Shown: positions 6,995 to 51,083 of the stretch, in pieces
How the letters are laid out: every line of letters starts with the position of its first letter
Position numbering within the stretch: position 1 is the stretch's first letter
Virus record (IMG/VR): IMGVR_UViG_3300046170_000502
Span: 64,001 to 128,000 of that record
DNA length: 64,000 nt
Direction: 5' to 3' (one strand)
Source: a virus
Notes under the pieces: generated by a model
Seen by the model: the letters and a program-made list of their open reading frames with translations, nothing else
What the model was told of the DNA's origin: nothing
Databases searched by the model: none
Made by a program: the position numbers and the translations under genes

Positions 6995-7004
6995 GCGTAT
7001 AAAC

Positions 7005-8062: not shown

Positions 8063-8068
8063 GTTTAT

Positions 8069-8097: not shown

Positions 8098-8113
8098 TGT
8101 TAAAAAAGATCAG

Positions 8114-10573: not shown

Positions 10574-10585
10574 ATTGATGTTATT

Positions 10586-10614
10586 ATAATAGCATTTTAT
10601 TGACCAAGTGTCAA
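10586..10614 (-). promoter_or_regulatory. Sigma70-type promoter for nrdA
   Basis: TTGACA-17 nt-TATTAT with extended -10 TG; 12 nt to the ATG. Confidence 0.65.
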
Positions 10615-10677
10615 CGCAAAACCTCTTATGTCAATAACTTTTACTTAGCTCAAGAGAACTAGGTTACACCTATAATT

Positions 10678-14239: not shown

Positions 14240-14268
14240 GATAAATAGTAAATAAAAGTAAGGATATT

Positions 14269-14273
14269 TACAC
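14269..14273 (-). promoter_or_regulatory. GTGTA motif directly after a terminator, upstream of the DUF1549 gene
   Basis: TGTGTGTAAAT follows the U-tract; 29 nt to the ATG. Confidence 0.45.
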
Positions 14274-14275
14274 AC

Positions 14276-17257: not shown

Positions 17258-18295
17258 TTATTTTTGCCTTGTTAGAAGCATGTAATCACTTTGATACATT
17301 TTTTTGACAAGTCCTGCAAAGTCCGTTTTTCTCTTCCACCCCATTTCTTTTTCCGCAAGAGATGGATCTCCGCATAGTTCGTGAACTTCTGCAGGCCTGT
17401 AAAATTTAGGGTCAACTTCAAAAAATAATCTTCCGTCAGTCGTATGATACTTTTCTTCGACTTCGGTTCCAGAAGTTTCGAATTGAATGTTTGCATTGTT
17501 CAAGGATTCGTTAAGGAATTCTCTAACTGTGTGCATTTCTCCACTCCCAAGCACATAATTTTTTGGCGTTTTCTGGTTAAGCATTAGCCAAACCCCTTCC
17601 ATAAAATCCTCTGCATCACTCCAATCTCTTTGGGCCTCTATATTTCCAAGCTTTAATATGGGTAATTTTTGACCTTTCTCTATAGCAATTTTAATTCTAG
17701 CAATTGTGTGAGTTATTTTTCGAGTTACAAAATCAAGACCCCTTCGACTGCCTTCGTGATTAAACAGCCAACCTTGGATGGCGTATATTTTATAGGACTC
17801 TCTGTATACGCGAACAATATGTCTTGCCCCGCATTTTGCGGCACCATAAGGCGATTGAGGTCGAAGTGGGTGCTCTTCATTTTGAGGTGAATAAATGACA
17901 TCCCCAAACTCTTCACTTGATCCGGCATTGTAAAATCTACATTGCGGCGCGAATCGACGAATAGATTCAAGAATGTGGAGCACAGCATTAGCATCTGTGT
18001 CCCATGTTTGAATCGGATAATTCCAACTGCCTGCAACAAAAGATTGCGCTGCGAAATTTATAAAGTAGTCTGGCTGAATATCCAATATTATATCACGCAT
18101 GCTATGCGCATCATTCAAATCCATATCAATTAGATGAAATCGCGACTCATTTTCTAGATGCAAAATGTTTTCGTGATTTTTAACACTCAACCTTCTTACT
18201 GAGCCATATATTTCATGGCTAGTATTTTTTAATAGATAATCAACCATATGACTTCCGTCTTGGCCGGTGACTCCTGTTACTATTATTTTTTTCAT
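17258..18295 (-). CDS. gmd: GDP-mannose 4,6-dehydratase
   Basis: TGVTGQDG, AAQSFV, SSEEFG, YGAAK, FNHE, FVTRKI, RDW and RPAEV motifs. Confidence 0.95.
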   Translation of the reverse strand: MKKIIVTGVTGQDGSHMVDYLLKNTSHEIYGSVRRLSVKNHENILHLENESRFHLIDMDLNDAHSMRDIILDIQPDYFINFAAQSFVAGSWNYPIQTWDTDANAVLHILESIRRFAPQCRFYNAGSSEEFGDVIYSPQNEEHPLRPQSPYGAAKCGARHIVRVYRESYKIYAIQGWLFNHEGSRRGLDFVTRKITHTIARIKIAIEKGQKLPILKLGNIEAQRDWSDAEDFMEGVWLMLNQKTPKNYVLGSGEMHTVREFLNESLNNANIQFETSGTEVEEKYHTTDGRLFFEVDPKFYRPAEVHELCGDPSLAEKEMGWKRKTDFAGLVKKMYQSDYMLLTRQK

Positions 18296-26883: not shown

Positions 26884-27294
26884 TTAAAGATTAACACCAA
26901 AAGTTTTAAATATTTCTTCATCAAGCTCGCTTTCTTTATACACCTCTACCAAGTGGATGCCGTTGAGTTCGCAAAATCTAAGTTTATCAGAGTCTCTTCT
27001 GAGTTGATTTATATAGTTAATTTTATTGCCTCCATGAAAAAATGGTACATACCTCGTGTGTTGTTGCCCTTGAACTTCTATCGCTATTTTTTTATTAGCA
27101 TTATAAAAATCAAGAGATAGCTTGGTCCCTGCAATAGGAAACTCTTCAAAGACTATATGCTTAATCCAATATTTTTTTAAAAACTGCTTCGTATTAAACT
27201 GTATTTTACTCCTACTCTTGCCGTCCCAGTCTATTAAGAATTTTTTAGACTTTTTTACTGTTCTTTCTGCTCCGGTTAAGGTTTTAAAGCGCAT
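26884..27294 (-). CDS. Vsr/DUF559-like endonuclease
   Basis: EEF...LDFY...IAIEVQGQQH...D..K..FC motif. Confidence 0.7.
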   Translation of the reverse strand: MRFKTLTGAERTVKKSKKFLIDWDGKSRSKIQFNTKQFLKKYWIKHIVFEEFPIAGTKLSLDFYNANKKIAIEVQGQQHTRYVPFFHGGNKINYINQLRRDSDKLRFCELNGIHLVEVYKESELDEEIFKTFGVNL

Positions 27295-28390
27295 TAGTTA
27301 ATTTTTTAAAATCCTCATAAAGGAAGCTAGACAGCTCTTCATTATCTTCCAGGAAATCTATAACTCTTTGCTCTCCTTGAAACTTTTCATTTATCTCTAG
27401 ACCTTTTTCTTTTAATTCTTTTATTAAATCTTCTGAAACAGATATCCATGCTCCCTTTTTTTGTATTAAGTTGAATAAATAAAGCATGTCTATAATTTCC
27501 CTGGCCCTCCAGATGGATTTACCACATTTTTGTCCGTACTTTATTGGGTACCTCACAGTTGAGCCAGTTCTTTCGTTAACGCTTTTTCTGAATTTTATCT
27601 TACAATAATGCCCTATAGGCTCACCTTTGGCTTCTAGAGTGGTGGCAGTAGGATTTTTAAACATCATATCAGAAGTGTATCTTTCTTGAAACTCAAGAAT
27701 GAAGTTTGCGTAATGCTTTACGGCATTACCTCCAGCTTCCTTTGTTTTTGGCCCACCTCTTGAGGCGTAAGGGTTTGTTGCCACTTCAACTCTAACTTGG
27801 CTTGTTAGTATCATTGTGTGACCCATTTTTGTTATCGGTAAGACCATTTTCTTTAAAAAAACAGAAGTTATTAGCGCTCCCCCTGCAACTTGCTCGGATT
27901 CCGCAAAAGGTTTGTCTATATCACCAATTCGACATAAAGCATCGACGCTATCGATGATAAACATGTATTTCTTGTCGTCTTCATTATTGAACACAAGTTC
28001 CCTGATCAGCTCAAAAACTTTTTCAAAGATATTACAATCGAAGACGAAGAATTTTTCAGGGTTAGTGTCAATTCCGGACCTCTCTATCATTTCTGGACTA
28101 AATCTTCCTTCGCTTTTAATGTAGATTATCATTCCGTTTTTATGAAAATGTTTTTGAAAGTTTCTTGCGAAGGCCATTGCACAACTCGTCTTTCCTCCTT
28201 CGTTTATGCCCGTAAACCTATGGGCGCCACTGGGTAGACCTCCTCCTAGCGCTATGTCTAAATTTAGGCTCCCGCTAGAGATTTTATAATCTTCGCTATC
28301 ATGAAAATTGTAATGATATTTTTTATTATCTTTATCCTCGAGGAATTTTGTAATCTGATCTGTTGTTTTTATTTCTTTTATTTTAGTCAT
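27284..28390 (-). CDS. recA: RecA/UvsX-like recombinase
   Basis: SGSLNLDIALGGG, GINEGGKTS P-loop, EGR, IDSVDAL and GGNAVKH. Confidence 0.9.
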   Translation of the reverse strand: MTKIKEIKTTDQITKFLEDKDNKKYHYNFHDSEDYKISSGSLNLDIALGGGLPSGAHRFTGINEGGKTSCAMAFARNFQKHFHKNGMIIYIKSEGRFSPEMIERSGIDTNPEKFFVFDCNIFEKVFELIRELVFNNEDDKKYMFIIDSVDALCRIGDIDKPFAESEQVAGGALITSVFLKKMVLPITKMGHTMILTSQVRVEVATNPYASRGGPKTKEAGGNAVKHYANFILEFQERYTSDMMFKNPTATTLEAKGEPIGHYCKIKFRKSVNERTGSTVRYPIKYGQKCGKSIWRAREIIDMLYLFNLIQKKGAWISVSEDLIKELKEKGLEINEKFQGEQRVIDFLEDNEELSSFLYEDFKKLTNAL

Positions 28391-36432: not shown

Positions 36433-39357
36433 ATGAGCGCAGATAAAGTACCAAAACAAGGGGCTGATGGACTGGCGGATATCAAGGGGCTATTGAGACC
36501 TAGGAGGACCAAGCTCACAAAAAAAAGATACGGTGGGCATAATGATGGTGGTTATGTTTTGATTGAGGAAGTTTTTAATCAAGCGGAAGTTGTTTATTCT
36601 TACGGCATAGATGATTCGGAGGATTCGGATTGTTTTGATTTAGCGTGTTCTGATTTGAATAAAAAAGTGTTCATGTTCGATGGCACAATTAATAATTACG
36701 AAACAAAGCGGGCGAATATGTTTTTTAAGAAAGAAAACGTTACTGAAGATAATTTCGAATCACACCTACTCTTGCAAAATAATATCGAGAAAGATAATAT
36801 GATCCTTAAGATGGACATAGAGGGCTGCGAATATCCTGTTATAGAGAAAAATATTAATTTAATTTCTAAATGCTTTAGCATGGTTTGCGTGGAATTTCAT
36901 GGATTAAATAACCCAGAATTTTATAGATATAAAGATAAGGGGTTCGTAATAAGGTTATTGCTTGAGAATTTTGATATTTTCCATATGCACGCAAATAACT
37001 GGGTCGAAAGAAAACATTTGATTCCAAATGTTATTGAGATATCTTTTGTAAGGAAGGGTTTTTGCTTAGAAGAGCTAGATGGCCCTTACCCAGTCAAGGG
37101 GTTAGATTTTCCTAATTGCGTCGGTAGAGAAGATTATAAACTAGATTGGTGGATCGAGTCTCAGTTTGATTTTCCAAATATAAAGGACATAAAACCTGCG
37201 CAAATCACAAAAAAAATACACTTATCCTGGAGGGATAAAAATGTATTAAACGGAGACTATCAATTAATTAATAAGGGGGCAAGGAAATTGCAATTATTGA
37301 ATCCTGACTGGGATGTGGTTGTATATGATGACGAAGACATTAACGGGCTACTTAGGGACACTATAGGAAAAGAAAACTGGGACTTAATTAAGGATAAGAA
37401 GATTACCGAAAAAACAGATCTCTGGAGGTTAATAAAAACTTACAAGGAGGGTGGAATGTATATTGATATTGATCGATATATAGATACTCCAATATCTGAA
37501 ATTATGAATACAAGCACTTCAATGGTTTTACCAACTTTTCAGGATGTTGATTTTTCACAAGACTTTATATTGACTTGCCCCAAGAACCCTATAATTGGTA
37601 GAGCTATAGTTAATAATTTAAATTATAGAAAGAAGGGTAAGTCTTTGTTTTTTATGGCCGTACAGTCTTATATGCATTCTGTTAGTGAAGTTTTAACTGG
37701 AAGTAAGATTGACAGAGGGGATAATGAGGAGTACTTCAATAAAGTTAGAAGTGGGATCCAAAACTGCGAATATCTCGAGACCTACAAGGAGACTGGCCCA
37801 AGCGATCATATATTATATAGAAACTTGAATAATAATTTTGATATGAATATATTTGAGAAAGATAAGGCTGATTTTTATAACGAAGAAAATGTTGTTCATT
37901 GGAATGCTGATACTAGAAAAAAACACGAATCGATTAAATTGCAATCTAGTCTTGAGTATGATATCAAGAAATATTATTCTAATTTAGGCGAGAATTTTAT
38001 TTTTGAAGGAGGAGATAATTCTGTTGAGAATGAAGAACAATCTAAAAGATTAATTAAATTATGCGAAGAATATAATTGCAAAAATATTATGGAAATCGGA
38101 TTTAATGCAGGTCATTCTGCGGATTTGTTTTTAAGTATGAATAATGATATTAAATTAACTAGCTTTGATATTGGCGTTCATAAGTATGTTGATTATGGTA
38201 AGAAGTTTATAGATAATAAATATCCAGGCAGACATAACTTAATATTGGGTGATAGCGCAAGAACAGTAAAGGAATTTTATAAAGAAAATCCAGGTATTAA
38301 ATTTGATTTAATTTTTATTGATGGAGATCATAGTGAAATCGGAGCAATTTCAGATTTATTTAATTGCCAAAAATTAGCTGACAATAAAACGGTAGTTGTT
38401 ATGGATGACACACGCAATAATCATCCAATGCATTCTTGGAATATTAATGTGAATCGCGCTTGGAGAAAATGTATCTCAGCTGGAATGATAGATGTTATAG
38501 ATTCCGAGGATTATGATAAATCTGATTCTTGCCCAAGGGGCCAGAGCTGGGGAAATTATATTATAGAGAAAGATGAAAATCTGTTGGTTGCCGTTGAGCA
38601 ATTTAAAAAAATGAAGTATCATTGGGGAGATTTGGTTGACGATGATAGCTTGAAGTTTATTAGCGATCAACTAGAGCAGCCCCAGTTAAGTAATAGGAGT
38701 TTTGATTGTTATTATCCTGGAGGTAAAATTGCAGTGGTTAGTTTATATACTGATGAAATAGCTGACTTCGCACACTACTCAGAAAAAAATATTCGACAAT
38801 ATTGCAAAAAACACAATTATACTTTTTATGTTTATCGTGATAAAATAGAAAAGAATTCTAGCCCAAATTGGTCAAAAGCAGGTTCGATATTGAATCATAT
38901 CAGTGATCATGAATATATTGTATGGATTGATTCTGATGCATTGATATTTGATAAAAATAAAAAATTTGAAACTATTATAGGTAAGTGCGCTAAAAATAAA
39001 TATATAATTGCATGCGAGGATATTGGTAAGAATTCAATGCTAAATTCGGGTGTTTTGATATTCAAGTCAGATAGTTATACTGAAAATTTAATAAAAAAAT
39101 GGAGAGACTTTGATGGCAATAAATCATCTCTTTACGCAAGCGGTGGGGATCAAGAAATTTTATGCAGAATCTTAAAGGCTAGTGATGGTTTTGGTTTTAA
39201 TAGGAAGGTGTTTCCTATGAGTGAATTTAATACAGATCCACGAATGATTGATGATGAAACTTTTATTGTTCATTTTATGGCATACCCTTCTCATTTGAAA
39301 AAAATTTTTATAAGGTATTTTGTTTCCAAAACAATTGATGACAGTGTATTAAGTTAA
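36433..39357 (+). CDS. Four-domain glycan-modifying enzyme: FkbM-like MTase + GT32-like + class I SAM MTase + GT34-like
   Basis: YSYGI/LKMDIEGCEY; GGMYIDID; MEIGFNAGHS/DLIFIDGDH; WSKAG...WIDSDALI...LNSGV...DQE. Confidence 0.75.
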   Translation: MSADKVPKQGADGLADIKGLLRPRRTKLTKKRYGGHNDGGYVLIEEVFNQAEVVYSYGIDDSEDSDCFDLACSDLNKKVFMFDGTINNYETKRANMFFKKENVTEDNFESHLLLQNNIEKDNMILKMDIEGCEYPVIEKNINLISKCFSMVCVEFHGLNNPEFYRYKDKGFVIRLLLENFDIFHMHANNWVERKHLIPNVIEISFVRKGFCLEELDGPYPVKGLDFPNCVGREDYKLDWWIESQFDFPNIKDIKPAQITKKIHLSWRDKNVLNGDYQLINKGARKLQLLNPDWDVVVYDDEDINGLLRDTIGKENWDLIKDKKITEKTDLWRLIKTYKEGGMYIDIDRYIDTPISEIMNTSTSMVLPTFQDVDFSQDFILTCPKNPIIGRAIVNNLNYRKKGKSLFFMAVQSYMHSVSEVLTGSKIDRGDNEEYFNKVRSGIQNCEYLETYKETGPSDHILYRNLNNNFDMNIFEKDKADFYNEENVVHWNADTRKKHESIKLQSSLEYDIKKYYSNLGENFIFEGGDNSVENEEQSKRLIKLCEEYNCKNIMEIGFNAGHSADLFLSMNNDIKLTSFDIGVHKYVDYGKKFIDNKYPGRHNLILGDSARTVKEFYKENPGIKFDLIFIDGDHSEIGAISDLFNCQKLADNKTVVVMDDTRNNHPMHSWNINVNRAWRKCISAGMIDVIDSEDYDKSDSCPRGQSWGNYIIEKDENLLVAVEQFKKMKYHWGDLVDDDSLKFISDQLEQPQLSNRSFDCYYPGGKIAVVSLYTDEIADFAHYSEKNIRQYCKKHNYTFYVYRDKIEKNSSPNWSKAGSILNHISDHEYIVWIDSDALIFDKNKKFETIIGKCAKNKYIIACEDIGKNSMLNSGVLIFKSDSYTENLIKKWRDFDGNKSSLYASGGDQEILCRILKASDGFGFNRKVFPMSEFNTDPRMIDDETFIVHFMAYPSHLKKIFIRYFVSKTIDDSVLS
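39344..39348 (+). promoter_or_regulatory. GTGTA motif upstream of the fibre cluster
   Basis: 10 nt before an ATG at 39359 (short uORF) and 47 nt before the fibre ATG. Confidence 0.45.
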
Positions 39358-39395
39358 TATGAGAAGCTTCCAGACAAAAAACAAAGGTTAATATT

Positions 39396-42300
39396 ATGGC
39401 AAAAAATAAAGTATATTTAATAAAAAGTGGAGAAAACTCTTTTGTAGAAGAAACTGAGGGTGTTTTAGGTATTAGCGGTGGGAAGTTTGGTTTCGGGACA
39501 ACTAGCCCAGAGGCCGATGTACATATCAGCGGAAATACTCAAATAGATGGAGATCTCTCAGTTAAGGGAAATTTCTCAACAGTTAATCAAACAACCGTAC
39601 AAATTGACGATAAGAATATTGAATTGGGGTTTGTCGATTCGCCAACCAATTTAACTGCAGACGGTGGAGGCATCACTCTAAAAGGAGCTACCGATAAGAC
39701 TATAATTTGGCAAAATTCAAACTCGGCTTGGAATTTCAGCGATAGCATACATATTGATTCAGAGAAAAGTATTTCAACAAAAGAAATAAAAGGTGTGAAT
39801 TTCTCAGGATTAAACTTGTTGGATGAAAGTGGTAGTGGAGTTTTTATAAAAAGCGGAAGAATTGGGGTTTTGAATGATTCCCCAGCTTATGATTTAGATG
39901 TCTCTGGAAGTGGTAATTTTTCCGAAGGTCTTTATGTAGATGGAAATGCTGTTGTTACCGGTGAGGCTGGGAAGTGGAGAGACGGGGTGAGCGCTGGAGA
40001 TATCACTTATACAGGAGGTAAAGTTGGTATAAGTAATGATTCCCCAGCTTATGATTTAGATGTCTCTGGAAGTGGTAATTTTTCCGCAGGTCTTTATGTA
40101 GATGGAAATGCTGTTGTTACCGGTGAGGCTGGAAAGTGGAGAAGTAATAGTAATATTGGCGAAATAATTTATACAGGAGGTAACGTTGGTATAAGTAATG
40201 ATTCCCCAGCTTATGATTTAGATGTCTCTGGAAGTGGTAATTTTTCCGCAGGTCTTTATGTAGATGGAAATGCTGTTGTTACTGGTGAGGGTGGAAAGTG
40301 GAGAGACGGAGTGAGCGCTGGAGATATCACTTATACAGGAGGTAACGTTGGTATAAGTAATGATTCCCCAGCTTATGATTTAGATGTCTCTGGAAGTGCT
40401 AATTTTTCCGCAGGTCTTTATGTAGATGGAAATGCTGTTGTTACTGGTGAGGGTGGAAAGTGGAGAGACGGAGTGAGCGCTGGAGATATCACTTATACAG
40501 GAGGTAACGTTGGCATCGGAACAGATAACCCAATTAGAGATTTTTACGTAGATGGAGACGCTCGTATCGATGGGGATCTAGAGGTTAACTCTCAATTTAA
40601 AGTCGGTCAATATGGGGCCATTGGAGATTCGCAACCTATCGCTCACGGAGATATCATGAAGTGGGATTCCACAAATTCAAAATGGTCAGTAGGTTCAAAT
40701 ATTCCTGGTGGACTAGTAACGGGAGAGGTTCCCTTAGGGTTTATTCAAGCTTTGCCTAGCGGCAGTTCAATTTACTCAATATCATTTGTTGAAGAATACG
40801 GAGCTATACCAAGTATTTCTACAGATTTACAGATAGAAGGAGAGGGAGGTATTATTCCTTATGTATTATCAGGAGTTTCCGAAAGTGGTTATAATTTAGT
40901 TTTTTCGAGGGAAATCCCTAATAATAATTATAGAGTTCATACGACATTTGGTGGCAGGCCAGTTTACTGGAATACGGGATCCAGCGCCAGCGTTAATTAT
41001 GAGGATGGGGATGTAAATATACTTCGGGATTTAACTGTTAGTGGTAATTTAACTGTGGATGGCACTCAGTTGATCGTTAATACTGAAACAATCAAACTTG
41101 AAGATCATAACATTGAAATCGCTTCAAACGCTACTTATGATTCGATTTCCGACGCTGGAATTTCTTGGGGGACGGATCCACTTGGGGGCGTTTCCCCTGT
41201 TTCTTTAACCTATACTTATGGACAAGGTTTTTCTTTCGGTGGCGGTAGTGTAGGTATTGGTACTACGAATCCTTCATCTAGATTAACAGTAAATCCTGGT
41301 AGTGTTACTAATGCTGGAACTTGGTCAGATTCTGCTTTAGCGATAACTAATCCAACAAATATTGGCTCTTATTCCCAAATTTCTTTTGGTTATACTGTCG
41401 GAACAATAAATGCAGCTGCTTATTTGGGGTTCGTGTCTACGAATCAAGGCTCTAATGGTTATGGAGATCTAGTATTTGGCACTCGCTCCGTAAATACAGA
41501 CACTGCGCCTACTGAGAGAATGCGCATAAATTCTAACGGCAACGTAGGTATTGGTACTACGAATCCTGATGCTCCACTTACCATATCAAGAACGCATACC
41601 AATGGTTCACCTGGTATAGATAATTTTATTACCTTAGATGCCACCGAAAAGTCGGGCCAAAATTTAGAGGCTGGTGATGGGGTGGGTATACTCTTTAAAG
41701 TTCCTGTCGAGTCACAATCAAGTAGTGTCGGAGCAAGAATCGCAGCTGTTCGTGAGGGCGGAACTGAGAATGCTACAAGCACAGAGTTAGTATTTCAAGT
41801 TTCTCAACAAGATGAAACACTTGATGAAGCAATGCGCATTGATCGCGACGGCAACGTAGGTATTGGTACTACGAATCCTGAGAGCGTGCTACAGGTTCAA
41901 GGGAAACAAGAATACGCTAATTCAGCAAGTGATTTAGCCACGTCTGTTACAAAAAGTGCTTTGCGAGTTCGCGGAAGTAATAACTCGAGTGACTCTCTCT
42001 GGATGGGAGTTGAGAATGTAAACGCGAATCCATATATACAAGGCTCAAATGGAAGCGGTAGTAATGCAAAAAATATTTCAATTAATCCGTTTGGCGGCAA
42101 CGTAGGTATTGGTACTACGAATCCTGGTGCTAAATTAGATATATCAAGTTCATCTACAAATATTGATATTTTAAGCACTGATGGTGATTTTGTAAATATT
42201 AGAAACCAAAATTCTACAACCAACAACTTCTCTTCAATAGGGTTTTTTGATAGTAGTAATGAATTAACGAGTAGGATTGCTTCTATTAGAGGAACTTCCA

Positions 42301-43373
42301 ACGGGCGTGGTTCTCTAGCGTTTATAAACGGACAAACATCGGATGGTTTAAAGGTAGAAATGATGCGTATCACCTCCGACGGCAACGTAGGTATTGGTAC
42401 TACGAGTCCTGGTGCGAAGTTGGATATAGCTGTTTCCTCAGGTGACGCCGCCTTATTAGTAAGAAATGCTACACAAACATTAAGGTTTGATCAAAATAGT
42501 ATAAGAACAAGCACTAGTAATGATTTAGGTATATTTACTAGTGGAAATTCAGGTCAAATATATTTAAAACAAAGTAATGGTAATGTAGGTATTGGTACTA
42601 CGAATCCTAGTGCGAAACTAACTCTCCCAGCAAGCGAATCTATTTCGTTTGATGACAGTTCTGGAAATAGTAAATGCGAAATTAATTCAGGTGCAGCAGG
42701 AACTCTACAACTACAAGGAGATTTGGACTTAAGATTTAAAACAACTGTTGAAGCAATGCGTATCAACTCCAACGGCAACGTAGGTATTGGTACTACGAAT
42801 CCTAGTGCGGGTCGGTTAGATGTGTGGCAAACAGAGAGTACCTCGGATTCGTGTATTAAAACTGTAAGACCTGGGACTGCAGAGAGAACACATTTAGCTT
42901 TTTATAACGCTAACGGTATTGTCGGCACTATAGAGGCAGGTGGTACTACTACATCATACAATACTAGCTCAGACTACAGATTAAAAGAAAATGTTGTCGA
43001 AGTTGATAATGCAATAGAAAGAGTTAATAAGCTTAAACCTTGTAGGTTTAATTTTATAGCAGATCCAGAAAAAATTGTTGATGGATTCTTGGCTCATGAA
43101 GTTCAAGAAGTTGTACCAGAAGCTATTTCCGGAGAAAAGGATGCCGTTAGAGAAGAAGAGTGCGAAATTGCGCCAGCAGAATTAGATGATGATGGTAATG
43201 TTGTTACTGAAGCCGAAATGGGAACGAAAGAAGTGCCTGAATATCAAGGTATAGACCAAAGTAAACTTGTACCTCTTTTGACCAAAGCAATCCAAGAACA
43301 ACAGAAACTAATTGAATCTCAACAATCAAAAATCAACGACTTGGTATCTCGCGTTGAATATCTAGAATCTTAA
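39396..43373 (+). CDS. Tail fibre/spike protein 1 with a C-terminal S74 intramolecular chaperone
   Basis: TTVQIDDKNIELG fibre motif, repeated GNVGIGTTNP, SSDYRLKENV cleavage motif, GFLAHEV and a terminal coiled coil. Confidence 0.88.
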   Translation: MAKNKVYLIKSGENSFVEETEGVLGISGGKFGFGTTSPEADVHISGNTQIDGDLSVKGNFSTVNQTTVQIDDKNIELGFVDSPTNLTADGGGITLKGATDKTIIWQNSNSAWNFSDSIHIDSEKSISTKEIKGVNFSGLNLLDESGSGVFIKSGRIGVLNDSPAYDLDVSGSGNFSEGLYVDGNAVVTGEAGKWRDGVSAGDITYTGGKVGISNDSPAYDLDVSGSGNFSAGLYVDGNAVVTGEAGKWRSNSNIGEIIYTGGNVGISNDSPAYDLDVSGSGNFSAGLYVDGNAVVTGEGGKWRDGVSAGDITYTGGNVGISNDSPAYDLDVSGSANFSAGLYVDGNAVVTGEGGKWRDGVSAGDITYTGGNVGIGTDNPIRDFYVDGDARIDGDLEVNSQFKVGQYGAIGDSQPIAHGDIMKWDSTNSKWSVGSNIPGGLVTGEVPLGFIQALPSGSSIYSISFVEEYGAIPSISTDLQIEGEGGIIPYVLSGVSESGYNLVFSREIPNNNYRVHTTFGGRPVYWNTGSSASVNYEDGDVNILRDLTVSGNLTVDGTQLIVNTETIKLEDHNIEIASNATYDSISDAGISWGTDPLGGVSPVSLTYTYGQGFSFGGGSVGIGTTNPSSRLTVNPGSVTNAGTWSDSALAITNPTNIGSYSQISFGYTVGTINAAAYLGFVSTNQGSNGYGDLVFGTRSVNTDTAPTERMRINSNGNVGIGTTNPDAPLTISRTHTNGSPGIDNFITLDATEKSGQNLEAGDGVGILFKVPVESQSSSVGARIAAVREGGTENATSTELVFQVSQQDETLDEAMRIDRDGNVGIGTTNPESVLQVQGKQEYANSASDLATSVTKSALRVRGSNNSSDSLWMGVENVNANPYIQGSNGSGSNAKNISINPFGGNVGIGTTNPGAKLDISSSSTNIDILSTDGDFVNIRNQNSTTNNFSSIGFFDSSNELTSRIASIRGTSNGRGSLAFINGQTSDGLKVEMMRITSDGNVGIGTTSPGAKLDIAVSSGDAALLVRNATQTLRFDQNSIRTSTSNDLGIFTSGNSGQIYLKQSNGNVGIGTTNPSAKLTLPASESISFDDSSGNSKCEINSGAAGTLQLQGDLDLRFKTTVEAMRINSNGNVGIGTTNPSAGRLDVWQTESTSDSCIKTVRPGTAERTHLAFYNANGIVGTIEAGGTTTSYNTSSDYRLKENVVEVDNAIERVNKLKPCRFNFIADPEKIVDGFLAHEVQEVVPEAISGEKDAVREEECEIAPAELDDDGNVVTEAEMGTKEVPEYQGIDQSKLVPLLTKAIQEQQKLIESQQSKINDLVSRVEYLES
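39873..40512 (+). repeat. Four tandem 162-bp (54-aa) coding repeats
   Basis: AATGATTCCCCAGCTTATG starts at 39873, 40035, 40197 and 40359. Confidence 0.92.
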
Positions 43374-43386
43374 TAGAAAGAATAAA

Positions 43387-45408
43387 ATGAAAGACCTAAA
43401 CTCCGAGAACGCATTTTTTGAAAATGTTTCAACCGATAATTTAAATTTCAATAGTGTAAATAACGACACTCCTCAATCAGTTAATGATGTTCTCGCTTGG
43501 AACGGATCAAGTTGGGAAGTTAAGGCCGCCTCAGACCTTGGTGTCGGAGGAGGGGGTGGAGGAGGCTCTACGCCTTCTTCTTTTGTGTCGAATATTCCAG
43601 CTGGAGTTGAGAGTCATGCAATAACATATGGGCCTTTCAGCTCCACTCCAAAAATAGCTTCAAGTTTGGAAATAAATGGGGATGGAGAAATTATTCCATA
43701 TACTATGTCTGGAGTTTCAGCGACGGGATATCACGCAATATTTTCTGACGCAACTCCAAATGCAAACTATAATATTCATACCGTTTTCGGAGGGGAATCC
43801 GCAGGATCTAGTGGGGGAGGCCTAAGCTACAACGAAGTTGTTGTAACTGTATCAGGTGCAAAGTTTTATATCGACGGAACTCAACAGTTACAACTTTCGC
43901 TTCAAAGGGGGCTTTCTTACAGATTTGACCAAAGCGATAGTACTAATTCTGGGCACCCTATCAAATTTAGCACTCTTAGTGACGGAACGCATAATACACC
44001 TGCAGGTAGTGAGTATACTGCCGGAATAGTTTATTCTGGTACTCCAGGCTCTGCTGGAGCTTATACAGAAGTAACTTTAAGCCAGAGTTCTCCTAACTTG
44101 TATTATTACTGCGAAAATCATCCTGGAATGGGGGGCAGTGCCCTTGGCGAAATAATTCTTAAGGCTAATGGCAACGTAGGTATTGGTACTACGAATCCTG
44201 CTGGTACATTAGAATTAAATAGCAGCAGTACTGATACTAACTTTTATATGGGCGGTACTCCAAGTGCTGGCTCAAGAGAGGCTTGGAGGTTTCAAGCTGA
44301 AGGAGATATTTTACATATAGGTCAATCTAAAAGTAGTTATGCTAAATATATGACTTTTTTCGGTAGTAAGGTAGGTATTGGTGCTACGAATCCTTCTCAC
44401 GATTTAACTCTTGGATCAGGAACTTCCGCTGGAACTGCTTCAACAAGGTTAAAAATATACAGAGGCGCAGATGATCCAGGACAAAATCTTGAAATGGGGT
44501 ATGATCATATCACCGTTACGCGAGATGCAAATACATTAGCAAATCCACAATCGACTTTTTCAATCAAACAAAAAGGTAGTGATGGTGAAAGAACAGCAAT
44601 ACATATCAACACCAACGGCAATGTAGGTATTGGTACTGTGAATCCTGGAAATATTTTAAATATCTATGATAGTGCAGCAGGTTCCGCGGGAACATCTGCT
44701 AGCCCTGATTGGTCTGACTCATTATTCCTTCAAAGAAATATTCCAAGCAATTATCAAGGAACAAGAATATTATTTGCGCATGGTAAGGCATCTATCGGTG
44801 GATTTAGGGAAGATAATACTGAGGACGGTGCGCATCATTTGGCATTTTACACGGGTGGAAATATTAGCGGGATTAACGAAGCAATGCGTATTACAAACAC
44901 TGGCGACGTATTGGTGGGGGCGACGAGTATAAATTCAGGATTAGGTGGAGTAGCTCAGTTTGAAGCTTCAAATCCAACCAATGGCGGTATAATTATTAAT
45001 ACTCAGAACTCTAATTTGAATAATTATTGCCGCTTGATGTTTACCGTAGCTAATACTGTAGGTAATGAAGGTTTAATCCGATATAACAGTAACGATTACC
45101 ACATGTCTTTTTGGACTAAAGCTCAAGAAAGAGTCCGTATCAAACAAGATGGCAACGTAGGTATTGGTACTACGAGTCCTAATACATCATTTCATGTAAG
45201 TTCTCAAGTAGGTAATGGTGATGGTACAGTGTTTGTAGAAAATACCTTGGCAACTTATGGAATGGGGTTAAAGGTCAAGGGCGGTGGAAATGTTGACAAT
45301 GAAAGGTTTGCATTAAAAGTTCAAAATGCTGCTGGGGATGATATTCTTTTCGCTCAATCAAAAACAGGCAATGTCGGCATTGGTACTACGGATCCTAGGT
45401 TCATATAA
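43387..45408 (+). CDS. Tail fibre protein 2 (N-terminal part; stops just before its S74 domain)
   Basis: GNVGIGTTNP repeats and a YYYCENHPGMG domain; ends ..DPRFI* where paralog 3 continues ..DTSSYKLHVNG. Confidence 0.82.
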   Translation: MKDLNSENAFFENVSTDNLNFNSVNNDTPQSVNDVLAWNGSSWEVKAASDLGVGGGGGGGSTPSSFVSNIPAGVESHAITYGPFSSTPKIASSLEINGDGEIIPYTMSGVSATGYHAIFSDATPNANYNIHTVFGGESAGSSGGGLSYNEVVVTVSGAKFYIDGTQQLQLSLQRGLSYRFDQSDSTNSGHPIKFSTLSDGTHNTPAGSEYTAGIVYSGTPGSAGAYTEVTLSQSSPNLYYYCENHPGMGGSALGEIILKANGNVGIGTTNPAGTLELNSSSTDTNFYMGGTPSAGSREAWRFQAEGDILHIGQSKSSYAKYMTFFGSKVGIGATNPSHDLTLGSGTSAGTASTRLKIYRGADDPGQNLEMGYDHITVTRDANTLANPQSTFSIKQKGSDGERTAIHINTNGNVGIGTVNPGNILNIYDSAAGSAGTSASPDWSDSLFLQRNIPSNYQGTRILFAHGKASIGGFREDNTEDGAHHLAFYTGGNISGINEAMRITNTGDVLVGATSINSGLGGVAQFEASNPTNGGIIINTQNSNLNNYCRLMFTVANTVGNEGLIRYNSNDYHMSFWTKAQERVRIKQDGNVGIGTTSPNTSFHVSSQVGNGDGTVFVENTLATYGMGLKVKGGGNVDNERFALKVQNAAGDDILFAQSKTGNVGIGTTDPRFI

Positions 45409-45850
45409 ATTATATGTAAATGGTAGTGTTTTTGCCAGTTCATATTACCCTACTTCTGACGACCGCGTCAAACACAACGAACAACCTATCGTTGGCGCAC
45501 TTGAAACACTCTCTAAAATTACACCCAAGAAGTACATCAAAACAACCGAAATGTACGATGTCGATCATGACTTTAAACTTGATTCTGACGGCAATCCGAT
45601 TGATGAGAATGGTGAATCAGTTGAACATCGCATCGAAGCAGGTGTAATCGCGCAACAAGTATTAACCGTTGATGAATTAGCATTTGCGGTTACCCCAGAA
45701 GGTGTAGACGAAGATGAAAATGCTACCAGACCACACGGCCTCGATTACAATAGTTTATTTACTTATGCAATCGCCGCAATTCAAGAACAACAGAAACTAA
45801 TCGAAGACTTGAGGGGCGAAGTAGAGGTTTTAAAAAAACAAATAAATTAA
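45400..45850 (+). pseudogene. Out-of-frame S74 chaperone portion of fibre 2 (+1 frameshift)
   Basis: Removing one G at 45398-45399 gives DPSSYKLYVNGSVFASSYYPTSDDRVKHN..., collinear with fibre 3. Confidence 0.75.
45414..45777 (+). repeat. 364-bp direct repeat, copy 1 (S74 coding)
   Basis: Appears identical to 47547-47910; translations in two frames are identical. Confidence 0.88.
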
Positions 45851-45856
45851 AAACAA

Positions 45857-47974
45857 ATGAAAGATTTTAAAACAAAAAACGGGTTCTTCACAGGTAATGT
45901 AGGGGTTGGTACTACGAGTCCAATATCACCATTAACAGTACAGGGCCAAAACGACACTACATTCGATAATATTGGTAATGTAACTTTTCTCGGAACAGAC
46001 GCTTACAATTCAAATGCTGGTGCTGGTATTATTTTTGGAGGTAGATACAATTCAGGCAATGATGTAACCACCTTTGGTCAAATATCGAGTATAAAAGAAA
46101 ACAATACCGATGGAGACTATAAAGCAACTTTAACCTTTGGAACTCGTGACGGTTCGACTTCAACAATGGAAAAAATGCGCATCAACTCCAGCGGCAACGT
46201 AGGTATTGGTACTACGAATCCTACATCTCCAAACTCAGTTAATAAATGTTTACACATATATGATGCTGACCATTGTTCACTTGCCCTGAGTGACGCAACT
46301 AATACTTGGGAAATTGTTTCAAATAGCGCTTTTACAATTAGAGAAGGTGTGGATACTAGGCTTAGCATAGACACATCTGGCAACGTAGGTATTGGTACTA
46401 CGAATCCTGTAAGTAAATTTGAAATTTATGGAACTGGAGACTTACTTAGATTATATTCTACTAATGCTGGAGCTGGTGGAGCTCAAATAGATTTAATCCA
46501 TGATTCAAGTTCTCCAGCAGATAATGATTCTGCTGGTTTAATTAATTTTCTAGGTAGAGATGCAGATTCCAATTTAACAACTTGGGCCTCAGTGAGAGGA
46601 ATTGTTAGAGATTTAAATAGTAAGGGCGGAGATATTACTTTCCTTAATAGATTAGGCAGTAATTTTGAAGAAAATATGCGTATCACCTCCAGCGGCAACG
46701 TAGGTATTGGTACTACGAATCCTGGTGCAACTCTCCATGTTAAGGCAAGTGATGATTCTACGAATGCATTGGCTTTCTGGGTAGTAAATAAGGCTCACAA
46801 TAATTCAATTATTTCTGCATATGAAAATGGTGATGTGTCACTTGGTACATTGACCTACAAAGATACATCAGGCAACGTAGGTATTGGTACTACGAGTCCT
46901 ATTGCTAGATTAAATATAGCAAATACAATAGCAGATTCTAATGTTTTCACTATATCGAGGGCGGAAAATGCTACTGTCTCCTTGTTGAGTATTTTTCAAG
47001 ATAGTAGTTGGGATATAGGGGGAGGTCAAGGAAGCGGCATCGCTCACATTAATACAAATAATAGAAATTTAGCAATAACGACATCCAGTGACCAAAGTCT
47101 TGATGGGGGAATATTTATTAACGAATCTGGCAACGTAGGTATTGGTACTACGAGTCCTGGTGCTAGATTAGACATATTAGGCCCCAACTCTACAGGTACT
47201 TTCTTTTCGGCGATGAATGCAGGCGCAGGTGGTACCGAGTTTAAAAGAGTTAATTCGAACTCTTATCCCTACAATCACTTCCTTTTTTACAATGGCCGCG
47301 TAGGTATTGGTACTACGAATCCTGGTTACAACCTTGATGTGCAACAATCTGATGGTAGTTGGGCTTCAAGAATATACAATACTGGTTCCAGTGGTGATGC
47401 CGCAGGTTTGCTTGTTAGGACAGATGCTACTGCTAGCGATAACGCATCAGCTTTCGGTATTTTTACCGATGGTGCATATAAGTTTCTTGTAAAAAGCACC
47501 GGCAACGTAGGTATTAGTACTACGGATACTAGCTCTTATAAATTACATGTAAATGGTAGTGTTTTTGCCAGTTCATATTACCCTACTTCTGACGACCGCG
47601 TCAAACACAACGAACAACCTATCGTTGGCGCACTTGAAACACTCTCTAAAATTACACCCAAGAAGTACATCAAAACAACCGAAATGTACGATGTCGATCA
47701 TGACTTTAAACTTGATTCTGACGGCAATCCGATTGATGAGAATGGTGAATCAGTTGAACATCGCATCGAAGCAGGTGTAATCGCGCAACAAGTATTAACC
47801 GTTGATGAATTAGCATTTGCGGTTACCCCAGAAGGTGTAGACGAAGATGAAAATGCTACCAGACCACACGGCCTCGATTACAATAGTTTATTTACTTATG
47901 CAATCGCCGCGATCCAAGAACAACAGAAACTAATCGAAGATCTTAAAGCTCGAATCGAAACTTTAGAATCTTAG
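45857..47974 (+). CDS. Tail fibre protein 3 with a C-terminal S74 chaperone
   Basis: Eight GxVG(I/V)(G/S)TT repeats and TSDDRVKHN. Confidence 0.88.
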   Translation: MKDFKTKNGFFTGNVGVGTTSPISPLTVQGQNDTTFDNIGNVTFLGTDAYNSNAGAGIIFGGRYNSGNDVTTFGQISSIKENNTDGDYKATLTFGTRDGSTSTMEKMRINSSGNVGIGTTNPTSPNSVNKCLHIYDADHCSLALSDATNTWEIVSNSAFTIREGVDTRLSIDTSGNVGIGTTNPVSKFEIYGTGDLLRLYSTNAGAGGAQIDLIHDSSSPADNDSAGLINFLGRDADSNLTTWASVRGIVRDLNSKGGDITFLNRLGSNFEENMRITSSGNVGIGTTNPGATLHVKASDDSTNALAFWVVNKAHNNSIISAYENGDVSLGTLTYKDTSGNVGIGTTSPIARLNIANTIADSNVFTISRAENATVSLLSIFQDSSWDIGGGQGSGIAHINTNNRNLAITTSSDQSLDGGIFINESGNVGIGTTSPGARLDILGPNSTGTFFSAMNAGAGGTEFKRVNSNSYPYNHFLFYNGRVGIGTTNPGYNLDVQQSDGSWASRIYNTGSSGDAAGLLVRTDATASDNASAFGIFTDGAYKFLVKSTGNVGISTTDTSSYKLHVNGSVFASSYYPTSDDRVKHNEQPIVGALETLSKITPKKYIKTTEMYDVDHDFKLDSDGNPIDENGESVEHRIEAGVIAQQVLTVDELAFAVTPEGVDEDENATRPHGLDYNSLFTYAIAAIQEQQKLIEDLKARIETLES
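47547..47910 (+). repeat. 364-bp direct repeat, copy 2
   Basis: Matches 45414-45777. Confidence 0.88.
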
Positions 47975-49191
47975 AAGTCGCTTAATGCAACTCTTTTCCA
48001 TAAGTCGCCACTCACGCAAATATACATATAATCATTATCATATGTAATTTCTCCTTTTGATCCTATTGAATTACTATTTTCTGGAGTATTATAATTTTGA
48101 AAATTTAATTTATTAAAACTTCCTGATACATTTGATATTGTATTATTTTCTGGCTTATAAAAACTATATAAGTCTCCACTAGTGGTAGTTAAATTATTTT
48201 CGAGCTTTGTTATTTTGTCTCCAGCTTTCCATTTTTTTTCAGTAGAGTCCCATTGTATAGAATTATTTTCTTGACTTGGGTTTACTCCCCCTATTGATCC
48301 AGAGATATTTATTCCTGAAGCATTAATTCCAGAGGGAAAAGTTATTTCGCCCTGCTCTGTAGAAGAAATACTTGTGTTTCCAATGTATAACGAATTGTTA
48401 GATAGGTATAAATGCCTTATTTTATATTCCGCAGAGCCAATATCATATGTTGAGTTTGTATCTGGTATAATGTGTGCGTCCAGGTTGCCATCGAGGTAGT
48501 TGGCTACATCTGTGTCGCTGTAAGTTGTTAAGTTTGCGCTTAAATTTTGCACGAATCCTGAGATTTGACTTATATCCCCTGTGGCGAGATCAACTTTTCC
48601 TGAGATTGTATTAAATCGTGAGTCATCAGAAACCTCTTCGTTGATAAGAACCTGAATGGCCCCTGAGATTTGACTTATATCCCCTGTGGCGAGATCAACT
48701 TTTCCTGAGATTGTATTAAATCGTGAGTCATCAGAAACCTCTTCGTTGATAAGAACCTGAATGGCCCCTGAGATTTGACTTATATCCCCTGTGGCGAGAT
48801 CAACTTTTCCTGAGATTGTATTAAATCGTGAGTCATCAGAAACCTCTTCGTTGATAAGAACCTGAATGGCCCCTGAGATTTGACTTATATCCCCTGTGGC
48901 GAGATCAACTTTTCCTGAGATTGTATTAAATCGTGAGTCATCAGAAACCTCTTCGTTGATAAGAACCTGAATGGCCCCTGAGATTTGACTTATATCCCCT
49001 GTGGCGAGATCAACTTTTCCTGACAGTGAGTTTATTTCTGACGAGTAGTTGATGCCCCCTTGAGTAATGTTAGTTACATAGCTTTCTGTAGCGACTGGTT
49101 GCCCACTTATCGTTATTTGCCCGGTTATTGAAACCTCGTTAGCTTCTAAGGAGTTAAAGATACCACTATCTGTTTTGAAAATCGCTGACAT
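47971..49191 (-). CDS. Fibre/stalk-like virion protein with 35-aa repeats
   Basis: SGKVDLATGDISQISGAIQVLINEEVSDDSRFNTI repeats; HIIPDTNSTYDIGSAEYKIRHLYLS; C-terminal GEITYDNDYMYICVSGDLWKRVALS fibre-tip-like motif. Confidence 0.7.
   Translation of the reverse strand: MSAIFKTDSGIFNSLEANEVSITGQITISGQPVATESYVTNITQGGINYSSEINSLSGKVDLATGDISQISGAIQVLINEEVSDDSRFNTISGKVDLATGDISQISGAIQVLINEEVSDDSRFNTISGKVDLATGDISQISGAIQVLINEEVSDDSRFNTISGKVDLATGDISQISGAIQVLINEEVSDDSRFNTISGKVDLATGDISQISGFVQNLSANLTTYSDTDVANYLDGNLDAHIIPDTNSTYDIGSAEYKIRHLYLSNNSLYIGNTSISSTEQGEITFPSGINASGINISGSIGGVNPSQENNSIQWDSTEKKWKAGDKITKLENNLTTTSGDLYSFYKPENNTISNVSGSFNKLNFQNYNTPENSNSIGSKGEITYDNDYMYICVSGDLWKRVALSDF
48557..49023 (-). repeat. 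About 4.4 tandem 105-bp perfect repeats
   Basis: TGACTTATATCCCC recurs at 48566, 48671, 48776, 48881 and 48986. Confidence 0.92.
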
Positions 49192-49322: not shown

Positions 49323-51083
49323 ATGGCAAAAATATTCAGAACAGAAGAATTGTCATTTAATAGCGATAATATTCGCATTAAATCGAGTGCAGAAGGAGCG
49401 TTTGAAATTACAAATGCTGGCGGAAGCACATTAATGAGTAGGGCAACTATCGAGAGTGATGTTTCCAGTCTACAGGCTGTAGATACCCAGAATCTCGGTA
49501 ACCTACAAACAGATCTTTCGAGCTTGAGTGCTCGAAATGATATTGAGGAAAACTCAACAGACACAGAGGTTTCTAGCTTAGCAGCTAAAGACTCTGATCT
49601 CGATACAGATATCTCTAGCCTTGTTGCTAAGGATAGCGGAGTCGATACAGATATCTCTAGTCTTCATGCTCAGCGCGTTTCTGACGAAGATGCTAACGAT
49701 TCAGAAATCTCTAGTCTTCAAGCTCAACGCGAAAGCGATGAGAGTACTAAGAACACAGAAGTTTCCAGTCTTCAAGCTCAGCGCGAAAGCGATGAGAGTA
49801 CTAAGGACACAGAAGTTTCCAGTCTTCAAGCTCAACGCGAAAGCGATGAGAGCACTAAAGATACAGAGGTTTCTAGCTTAACAGCTAAAGACGCTGATCT
49901 CGATACAGATATCTCTAGCCTTGTTGCTAAGGATAGCGGAGTCGATACAGACATCTCTAGTCTTCATGCTCAGCGCGTTTCTGACGAAGATACTAACGAT
50001 TCAGAAATCTCTAGTCTTCAAGCTCAACGCGAAAGCGATGAGAGTACTAAGGACACAGAAGTTTCCAGTCTTCAAGCTCAGCGCGAAAGCGATGAGAGTA
50101 CTAAGGACACAGAAGTTTCCAGTCTTCAAGCTCAGCGCGAAAGTGATGAGAGCACTAAAGATACAGAGGTTTCTAGCTTAACAGCTAAAGACGCTGATCT
50201 CGATACAGATATCTCTAGCCTTGTTGCTAAGGATAGCGGAGTCGATACAGACATCTCTAGTCTTCATGCTCAGCGCGTTTCTGACGAAGATACTAACGAT
50301 TCAGAAATCTCTAGTCTTCAAGCTCAACGTGAAAGCGATGAGAGTACTAAGGACACAGAAGTTTCCAGTCTTCAAGCTCAGCGCGAAAGTGATGAGAGCA
50401 CTAAAGATACAGAGGTTTCTAGCTTAACAGCTAAAGACGCTGATCTCGATACAGATATCTCTAGCCTTGTTGCTAAGGATAGCGGAGTCGATACAGACAT
50501 CTCTAGTCTTCATGCTCAGCGCGTTTCTGACGAAGATACTAACGATTCAGAAATCTCTAGTCTTCAAGCTCAGCGCGAAAGCGATGAGAGTACTAAGGAC
50601 ACAGAAGTTTCCAGTCTTCAAGCTCAGCGCGAAAGTGATGAGAGCACTAAAGATACAGAAGTTTCCAGTCTTCAAGCTCAGCGCGAAAGCGATGAGAGTA
50701 CTAAGGACACAGAAGTTTCCAGTCTTCAAGCTCAACGCGAAAGCGATGAGAGCACTAAAGATACAGAGGTTTCTAGCTTAACAGCTAAAGACACTGATCT
50801 CGATACAGATATCTCTAGTTTAGCAGTTGTTGCTTCTGAGAATGATGTAAGAGTTATCACAGTATCTCTTAATGAAGGAGACACCTCTAAGGCAGTAACA
50901 TTCCCAAGCGCATTCCCGAATGGATCGGATGTTTCTGCTATCGGAATGATTAAAGCCGGAACTAATGACGCTATCGTTGCATGTCAACTTAGCGAAATTA
51001 GCGTAACTTCTGCAACATTCCAGTTCTCTGATGATATTCCAGCTGGTGGGGCATACTCATTGGTTGTAATGGCTTCTGCGTAA
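49323..51083 (+). CDS. Acidic Ser-rich coiled-coil stalk protein (14/18-aa repeats) with a C-terminal beta-module
   Basis: SSLQAQRESDESTKDTEV and SSLxAKDxxxDTDI repeats; C-terminal LNEGDTSKAVTFPSAF..FQFSDDIP. Confidence 0.7.
   Translation: MAKIFRTEELSFNSDNIRIKSSAEGAFEITNAGGSTLMSRATIESDVSSLQAVDTQNLGNLQTDLSSLSARNDIEENSTDTEVSSLAAKDSDLDTDISSLVAKDSGVDTDISSLHAQRVSDEDANDSEISSLQAQRESDESTKNTEVSSLQAQRESDESTKDTEVSSLQAQRESDESTKDTEVSSLTAKDADLDTDISSLVAKDSGVDTDISSLHAQRVSDEDTNDSEISSLQAQRESDESTKDTEVSSLQAQRESDESTKDTEVSSLQAQRESDESTKDTEVSSLTAKDADLDTDISSLVAKDSGVDTDISSLHAQRVSDEDTNDSEISSLQAQRESDESTKDTEVSSLQAQRESDESTKDTEVSSLTAKDADLDTDISSLVAKDSGVDTDISSLHAQRVSDEDTNDSEISSLQAQRESDESTKDTEVSSLQAQRESDESTKDTEVSSLQAQRESDESTKDTEVSSLQAQRESDESTKDTEVSSLTAKDTDLDTDISSLAVVASENDVRVITVSLNEGDTSKAVTFPSAFPNGSDVSAIGMIKAGTNDAIVACQLSEISVTSATFQFSDDIPAGGAYSLVVMASA
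49560..50820 (+). repeat. Hierarchical 42/54-bp coding VNTR
   Basis: The higher-order unit A14-B14-C18-(D18)n has n=3,3,2,4; periods include 300 and 246 bp. Confidence 0.92.

Follow-up and report, generated by a model that had tools for sequence, protein, structure and literature searches.

How the same 30-nucleotide (nt) DNA string comes to be repeated in frame, with one spelling, between protein modules that have nothing else in common is the question raised by a fibre locus in an uncultured marine giant phage. The locus lies in a stretch of 64,000 nt (the window), corresponding to positions 64,001 to 128,000 of IMG/VR record IMGVR_UViG_3300046170_000502, and the string, GGCAACGTAGGTATTGGTACTACGARTCCT, recurs in three neighbouring predicted fibre genes (g1, g2, and g3). 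We report evidence that this 30-mer is very probably an in-frame recombination seam at which host-recognition fibres are rebuilt by module exchange. A reading of the stretch from its letters alone (the sequence-only reading) had proposed that the repeats are crossover points for in-frame module swapping, and this core proposal was supported by module order, breakpoints, and codon usage.

A search of the 64-kb window detected 17 matches to the 30-mer with at most three mismatches, 12 of them exact. All 17 were located on the plus strand and in frame, between positions 41244 and 47530, with none elsewhere in the window and none expected from shuffled sequences. At the protein level, a scan of the window for the motif GxVGIGTxxP detected 19 in-frame copies, and the addition of those at 44365 (SKVGIGATNP) and 47501 (GNVGISTTDT) gave 21 motif copies in g1, g2, and g3. 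The approximately 20 copies, 12 of them exact, previously counted in three genes were thus confirmed, as was the array previously placed at 41250 to 47524, except that its first copy starts at 41244 and not at 41250. Also as described before, a GNVGIGT copy near 40502 uses different codons; it starts at 40503 and encodes GNVGIGTDNP, the same peptide core spelled otherwise (GGTAACGTTGGCATCGGAACA...). Repeat searches of the window and the fibre region detected no inverted copies of the 30-mer.

Within genes, successive junctions were spaced 165 to 534 nt apart (start to start), and the module interiors between them encoded 45 to 168 amino acids (aa; 135 to 504 nt). These interiors were mutually unrelated, with a blastp match at an E value of 1e-3 or below for only 1 of 136 module pairs within the window and nucleotide-level matches for none of the 136. 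DNA identity ended sharply at the edges of the 30-mer, and the flanks differed at once on both sides. Upstream, M-R-I residues were conserved in mixed codons (CGC/CGT; ATA/ATT/ATC). Repeats at the ends of the arrays were slightly more diverged, with means of 2.2 mismatches for the first and 2.0 for the last copy versus 1.4 for internal copies, which is a modest trend.

The identity of the repeats exceeds what codon bias gives. With a usage table compiled from 38 other open reading frames (ORFs) of the window, the probability that one GNVGIGTTNP copy spells the consensus was 2.8e-6. The 30-mer includes the minority codons GGC (usage, 0.18), AAC (0.34), and ACG (0.09, the rarest Thr codon), in agreement with the earlier observation that identity reaches synonymous positions and disfavoured codons. 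One spelling was common to 12 of the 13 copies of GNVGIGTT(N/S)P, whereas in 20,000 simulations never more than 2 copies had the same spelling; codon bias, named at the outset as a possible refutation, does not explain the pattern. Among 311 copies from 36 contigs, each of the ten repeat codons was represented by 1.0 to 1.7 effective codons. As an internal control, a Leu at codon +14, located four residues downstream of the repeat and conserved in 80% of copies, had 4.0 effective codons and ordinary usage. In a subset of copies, the preceding MRIxS codons were skewed as well (TCC, 0.74 versus 0.08; ATC, 0.55 versus 0.19), and in this subset the homology patch extends to approximately 48 nt.

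A natural negative control was provided by contig L044, in which 20 copies of the same peptide motif are all spelled differently (mean pairwise nucleotide identity of 0.73). In L043, a distant 203-kb relative, 20 copies use the core spelling of the window (mean pairwise nucleotide identity of 0.87), yet its fibre is only approximately 25% identical to g3. As both the Leu at codon +14 and the motif in L044 use free codons, the peptide does not force the DNA spelling, and protein-level selection alone is insufficient, as the sequence-only reading had argued. The more distant phages L003 to L005 and the cellular contig L044 encode the same motif in other or free spellings. Together with the shared spelling in L043, this is more in keeping with a compatibility standard specific to the clade than with a universal function of the sequence. 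L044 (positions 1 to 11150) is cellular in appearance (37% G+C, with ligase, GatC, and GatA neighbours), its 20 GNVGIGTTxP motifs lie in giant fibre genes, and cupredoxin-domain genes adjoin these.

The fixed spelling could instead be selected for a DNA or RNA function apart from recombination, such as a translational pause or a DNA or RNA structure, and exchange would merely make use of it. Such a function would accommodate the fixation of the rarest Thr codon and other disfavoured codons in all copies, the retention of one spelling across phages with 25 to 40% protein identity, and the capacity of CGTAG...CTACG to form a small hairpin. However, a pause needs rare codons and not one exact 30-nt string, L044 and L003 to L005 produce the motif without this spelling, and the breakpoints described below indicate that the 30-mer is used for exchange. 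We therefore regard this explanation as improbable. The hairpin CGTAG...CTACG was evaluated separately and rejected as a candidate structure, with a folding energy of -3.2 kcal/mol, a z score of -1.4, and 20 of 200 shuffled sequences folding as well.

Relatives of the phage were identified by a protein-based search, which found two viral contigs with many copies of the 30-mer, and then by exact-pattern scans. These scans detected the 30-mer in 11 IMG/VR stretches and in 25 marine metagenome contigs, and 35 related marine contigs share it with the window; it was not found in 185,579 prokaryote species genomes, which therefore gave no host or prophage clue. Outside the fibre genes, backbone identity to the window was 66 to 72%, with a maximum of 77%. 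In contrast, single fibre modules, which sit in different genes, were 87 to 100% identical to those of relatives, with interiors reaching complete identity (156/156 with L002 and 255/255 with L006); identical module copies at other positions or in other phages had been among the checks suggested. In g1, the block at 41847 to 42410 was 97.5% identical to L006, those at 42579 to 42802 and 42579 to 42805 were 94.6% and 98.7% identical to L007 and L028, respectively, and that at 42771 to 43316 was 96.3% identical to L002. In g3, the block at 46167 to 46419 was 95.3% identical to L002 (including the 156/156 interior), that at 46692 to 46903 was 95.6 to 95.8% identical to L006 and L009, and that at 46871 to 47172 was 95.4% identical to L001.

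Modules that reside in g1, g2, and g3 of the window were combined in single genes of L006, L007, L029, and L032. In L006, g1-type modules come after a g3-type module, which itself follows a g2-type module, and g1 and g2 modules are interleaved in L032. In L029, the g3 module at 46871 to 47129 is joined directly to the g2 module at 45151 to 45367, and the two alignments overlap by exactly the repeat. In the single 203-kb contig L043, two consecutive fibre genes contain the same two modules in opposite orders (A-B and B-A), at 98.5 to 98.8% identity, and a third module is duplicated inside one gene. At least two different neighbours on one side were present in 37 of the 53 module families that occur in at least two contigs. 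Conserved module order among relatives, which had been anticipated as evidence against exchange, was thus not observed. Module exchange, both between paralogous genes and between genomes, is much younger than the divergence of the backbones.

The breakpoints of this exchange coincide with the repeat. In a pooled set of 36 contigs with 312 repeat copies and 261 modules, 107 intercontig module pairs shared at least 90% identity; the neighbours across their junctions were non-homologous in 99 cases and homologous in 64. At the 99 broken junctions, ungapped identity was 0.95 to 0.96 in the last 30 nt of the module and 0.89 to 0.95 in the repeat, and it fell to 0.36 to 0.38 in the first 6 nt beyond the repeat and then to the random level of approximately 0.30. 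Among high-scoring segment pairs of at least 90% identity between interiors, 106 spanned the whole module and 14 stopped inside one. An analysis without module definition gave the same picture: 28 of 48 BLAST segment ends in the window were located within 5 nt of an outer edge of the repeat, versus 1.7 expected, and the maximum in 10,000 random placements was 8. Breakpoints that avoid the repeat, also previously named as contrary evidence, were therefore not what was found.

A mosaic of this kind could be an assembly artefact if assemblers switched between co-occurring related phages at the 30-mer. The relatives are metagenome contigs, and several end inside a fibre array, including G001 (L006; 103.6 kb) and G003 (L016; 115.2 kb), which is consistent with either assembly breaking on repeats or population heterogeneity. 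In addition, no alternative junction pair was doubly replicated, and L042 is a circularly permuted 2.2-kb contig derived from a cycle through the 364-nt S74 duplicate of g2 and g3. This JGI contig (L042, positions 1 to 2198; 99% identical to the window) runs from 46665 to 47940 and then from 45781 to 46725, its ends overlap at junction 46694, and it may be an assembly loop, a tandem duplication, or an excised circle.

However, the final k-mers that metagenome assemblers usually employ are longer than 30 bp, and an assembler would have had to switch twice to produce any one shared block. Identities of 87 to 100% among the shared modules point to different ages, against approximately 68% identity for the backbones, and 18 junction types recur across independent samples. 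L042, which is a separate contig, confirms the module order of the window across eight junctions, and the A-B/B-A permutation sits within one 203-kb contig. Even chimeras would require the same modules to be present in different co-occurring phages. Chimeric assembly was therefore considered a minor contributor, which may account for individual cases, and as an explanation of the whole mosaic it is quite improbable.

What the modules are is suggested by sequence matches to solved structures. Peptidase_S74 (PF13884) was detected above the curated cutoff in g1 (E value, 4e-10), in g3 (2.5e-5), and in the frame-shifted tail of g2 (1.3e-6), with the S-D-x-x-x-K motif present as SDYRLK in g1 and as SDDRVK in g3 and the g2 tail. 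The g3 sequence matched chains of the Bdellovibrio MAT fibres, namely 8OND (Bd2133; E value, 4e-6), 8OJN (2.5e-4), and 8OML. In the alignment with 8OJN, two successive g3 junction motifs aligned with RVGVGTTAPTSALH and FGINTAAPAYNIH, which Caulton et al. 2024 (PMC10769870) define as the pair of capping loops at the boundaries of a single beta-helix segment. The capping-loop motif type V-G-x-x-x-x-P-x-x-x-L has 21 copies in the window, which align to capping loops of 8OJN and to Bd2133 in 8OND. As the junction motifs align to defined capping loops, the 30-mer probably encodes the start of a capping loop, and a module would correspond to one beta-helix segment.

Judged by sequence, the products of g1, g2, and g3 are best explained as trimeric beta-helix tail fibres of the S74-chaperone/MAT type. 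The label of "binding modules" previously given to the unique segments was not supported as stated, as these are read here as segments of the beta-helix shaft. At least 1869 homologues, nearly all of them unnamed, were found at an E value of 1e-10 or below, which makes this a very large protein family.

A mechanism can be proposed on this basis. GNVGIGTT(N/S)P would start the capping loop that closes each beta-helix segment, and because of this closing role the motif would be needed at every module boundary. Its single DNA spelling would create approximately 20 identical 30-bp homology patches per genome, all in one reading frame and separated by interiors without homology. Homologous recombination between any two patches, whether in the same gene, in paralogous genes, or in co-infecting relatives, would yield an in-frame fibre gene with modules replaced, inserted, deleted, or reordered. 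The fold would tolerate such exchange because each module is self-contained. RecA-type systems need at least about 30 identical bp to work efficiently, and exchange could proceed by general homologous recombination catalyzed by phage or host enzymes; the RecA-family protein and the PD-(D/E)XK nuclease encoded in the window may be candidates. The spelling would persist since crossover and gene conversion keep copying the 30-mer, and also since lineages keeping it would stay compatible with a shared module pool and lineages losing it would drop out.

A stronger version of this proposal is that the 30-mer is an actively maintained, clade-wide "standard connector," with a dedicated sequence-specific function, for instance a nuclease or recombination mediator targeting the 30-mer, and second-order selection for evolvability keeping the spelling. 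This would mean that a module of any clade member plugs in frame into any fibre gene and that the locus is a programmed combinatorial host-range system and not a passive by-product. We consider this version unlikely.

Programmed cassette shuffling, as in antigenic variation, could also be driven by a dedicated nuclease, nickase, or recombinase that recognizes the 30-mer. The extreme invariance of the 30-mer, its clade-wide occurrence, and its sharp edges would suit an enzyme target, and the window encodes both a PD-(D/E)XK nuclease and a RecA-like protein. However, none of the candidate enzymes has a link to the fibre genes, all copies lie in three expressed genes and thus leave no silent store of cassettes, and inverted copies, which would point to an invertase, are absent. 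As 30-bp identities are sufficient for ordinary homologous recombination, a dedicated enzyme is highly improbable. Recent tandem duplication of one module, with very fast divergence of interiors and junctions not yet diverged, has next to no probability: the frame common to all modules (capping loop ... MRIxS) does imply ancient paralogues, but the interiors vary in length (45 to 168 aa), are unrelated by BLAST, and cannot be fast-diverging because the same interiors are 95 to 100% identical in other phages, and synonymous sites of the conserved flanking residues are already randomized.

Several observations weigh against the proposal that the 30-mer is a recombination seam. No recombination event was observed directly, and almost all relatives are short-read metagenome contigs, so that some mosaics could be assembly chimeras. 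The 18 junction types replicated in two independent samples are a minority of 189, and among these 189 types no module family had two alternative junctions that were each replicated. Modules shared with relatives were not flanked by cleaner repeats than unshared modules (P = 0.48), and a relationship between repeat integrity and mobility is thus unsupported. No module is duplicated within the window, where intragenomic exchange is documented only by the 364-nt S74 duplicate. Finally, an AlphaFold2 monomer model of g3 (42-sequence alignment) was beta-rich and of low confidence, with a predicted local distance difference test score (pLDDT) of 59 and a predicted template modeling score (pTM) of 0.27, and the assignment of the module fold therefore rests on the matches to solved structures.

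The three fibre genes are adjacent on the plus strand. Gene g1 (39396..43373; 1325 aa) encodes an N-terminal stalk, seven junction-bounded modules, and a C-terminal S74 chaperone. The stalk consists of four tandem 162-nt (54-aa) repeats at 39873 to 40628, 72 to 97% identical to the reference copy, which are a length-variable repeat kind distinct from the junctions. The copy in other codons (40503..40532, +) is located at the end of this tandem-repeat stalk. The g1 array, which like those of g2 and g3 is on the plus strand, starts with a copy carrying three mismatches (41244..41273), followed by exact copies at 41538..41567, 41850..41879, 42096..42125, and 42381..42410, the last in the AGT form. 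The copies at 41850 and 42381 delimit, on the left and on the right, respectively, the 564-nt block shared with L006 at 97.5% identity. The next copy (42579..42608), with two mismatches, is the left edge of the module common to L007 and L028, and the exact copy that ends the g1 array (42774..42803) is the left edge of the 546-nt block 96.3% identical to L002.

The body of g2 (43387..45408, +; 673 aa) contains an exact copy at 44170..44199, the degenerate SKVGIGATNP copy (44365..44394), a copy with three mismatches (44617..44646), an exact copy in the AGT form (45151..45180), and a last copy with four mismatches (45367..45396), after which a frameshift follows directly. An extra G at approximately 45397 to 45400, 1 to 4 nt from the recombination joint, shifts the frame so that the body ends at 45408; the extra base may reflect a sequencing error, mark a recoding site, or make this a dead allele. 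The out-of-frame continuation (45326..45850, +) carries the S74 chaperone and aligns with the C terminus of g3.

Gene g3 (45857..47974, +; 705 aa) has eight junction copies, seven modules, and a C-terminal S74 chaperone. Its first copy is diverged (45893..45922; GNVGVGTTSP), and exact copies follow at 46193..46222, 46379..46408, 46694..46723, 46871..46900, and 47129..47158, the latter two in the AGT form; the copy at 46193 is the left edge of the module (WIN_m14) identical at 156/156 positions to one of L002. A copy with two mismatches (47294..47323; GRVGIGTTNP) precedes the last one, GNVGISTTDT, with three (47501..47530). A 364-nt stretch covering the S74 chaperone in the g2 continuation (45414..45777, +), starting 18 nt past the last g2 junction, is exactly identical to 47547..47910 (+) in g3. 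This duplicate testifies to a recent conversion or duplication event between the paralogous fibre genes and represents a second, larger trace of intragenomic exchange.

Overall, the window resembles the genome of a large myovirus, with genes for a tail sheath, ribonucleotide reductase, DNA polymerase III alpha, a ClpB-like ATPase, a RecA-family protein, and a glycosylation gene block. The tail sheath is distantly related to those of phiKZ-type phages, at only approximately 32% identity, and the closest cultured phages by protein are cyanophages, pelagiphages, and roseophages (24 to 30% identity). A megablast comparison of the fibre region with 50,697 phage records gave no match, and there is consequently no close cultured relative with which the locus could be compared. 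The gene for the RecA/Rad51-family recombinase, a candidate catalyst, is located on the minus strand at 27284..28390 (PF00154; E value, 1.2e-17); the attribution of exchange to the phage RecA, suggested as a possibility by the sequence-only reading, was not supported as stated.

The gene immediately before the fibre genes (36433 to 39357, +) encodes a 974-aa protein in which methyltransferase and glycosyltransferase domains alternate, and a GDP-mannose 4,6-dehydratase gene is present at 17258 to 18295; taken together, the two hint at glycosylated virion proteins. Downstream, the plus-strand gene at 49323 to 51083 consists of many short near-identical repeat units and gave dozens of BLAST hits to similar repeat genes of L001 and L002. 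The gene at 11993 to 14275 (-) encodes a protein that combines PSCyt2 and PSD1 domains (DUF1549/DUF1553), as is typical of Planctomycetes-type bacteria, and may be a host clue or an auxiliary gene. The DNA polymerase III alpha gene lies next to the ClpB-like ATPase gene both in the window (493 to 5559, -) and in L043 (1 to 2896), a pairing that appears to mark the giant-phage clade.

Host range is the main limit on phage infection, and fibres are the fastest-evolving part of a phage. This locus shows unusually clearly how a clade of abundant uncultured marine giant phages can rebuild its fibres, and it connects a genetic exchange point with the MAT capping loop, a structural feature already solved. 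Junction repeats would also explain why fibre regions break metagenome assemblies, and they offer a natural design rule for chimeric fibres of laboratory phage-host systems, which is to cut at the capping loop and keep the joint.

The locus was rejected as a CRISPR (clustered regularly interspaced short palindromic repeats) array, a diversity-generating retroelement (DGR), or a silent-cassette system on the basis of repeat type, module length, and location of the copies. The CRISPR-like layout suggested by the sequence-only reading proved superficial, being confined to the alternation of identical repeats of approximately 30 bp with unique sequence. CRISPR arrays are non-coding, with nearly uniform spacers of about 26 to 72 nt, whereas the repeats here are translated in frame inside ORFs of 673 to 1325 aa and the "spacers" are protein modules of variable length, 135 to 504 nt. 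These unique segments match fibre modules of related phages and not foreign invaders. No cas genes were detected among 27 window ORFs (a subset of those present) scanned with Pfam or PHROGs, and no leader was seen. The repeat families at 39000 to 48200 (the junction, the 162-nt tandem repeat, and the S74 duplicate) included no template repeat/variable repeat pair of a DGR, in a comparison not aimed at reverse transcriptase.

Short identical DNA repeats that frame variable coding cassettes and guide recombination altering a surface protein are also known from cellular pathogens: Borrelia vlsE cassettes are flanked by 17-bp direct repeats, and trypanosome variant surface glycoprotein (VSG) genes are associated with 70-bp repeats. 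In the vlsE and VSG systems, a single expression site receives copies from silent archives of the same genome. In the phage, by contrast, every module is part of a gene that is expressed, and related phages together serve as the archive; no unexpressed cassettes were found, as all junction copies of the 64-kb window lie inside the three fibre ORFs.

The MAT fibres of Bdellovibrio bacteriovorus (Bd3182, Bd2133, and Bd1334; PDB 8OND, 8OJN, and 8OML; PMC10769870) are similar in sequence and in their C-terminal S74 chaperone, and in them a recurrent capping-loop motif, with which the junction peptide of the window aligns, bounds beta-helix segments. They differ in being cellular, with a signal peptide, a conserved N-terminal anchor, and a mosaic found mainly in the tip domains (PMC10769870). 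That study reports neither DNA-level uniformity of the loop motif nor recombination at it, and the word "recombination" appears only in its methods. No paper in the literature searched contained the motif string.

The closest precedent in mechanism is found in T-even phages, where conserved motifs ("His boxes") of gp37 and glycine-rich motifs of gp38 separate hypervariable segments that are swapped by recombination at the motifs (Tetart et al. 1996, 1998; Trojet et al. 2011, PMC3157838). In both cases, host-recognition proteins consist of variable segments with short conserved motifs between them, and natural chimeras have their exchange points in or beside the conserved motif. The likeness is one of mechanism and not of descent, as the protein families are unrelated and the window fibres gave no gp37 or gp38 Pfam hit, only Peptidase_S74. 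Unlike the T-even motifs, the junction is one exact 30-nt string, present in approximately 20 copies per genome in three paralogous genes across a clade with approximately 68% backbone identity. The exchanged units are whole structural modules of 45 to 168 aa rather than loops of 10 to 30 aa, and both module order and gene of residence are permuted. The principle is thus known from T-even phages, and what is new here is its regularity, its scale, and the quantitative evidence for the breakpoints.

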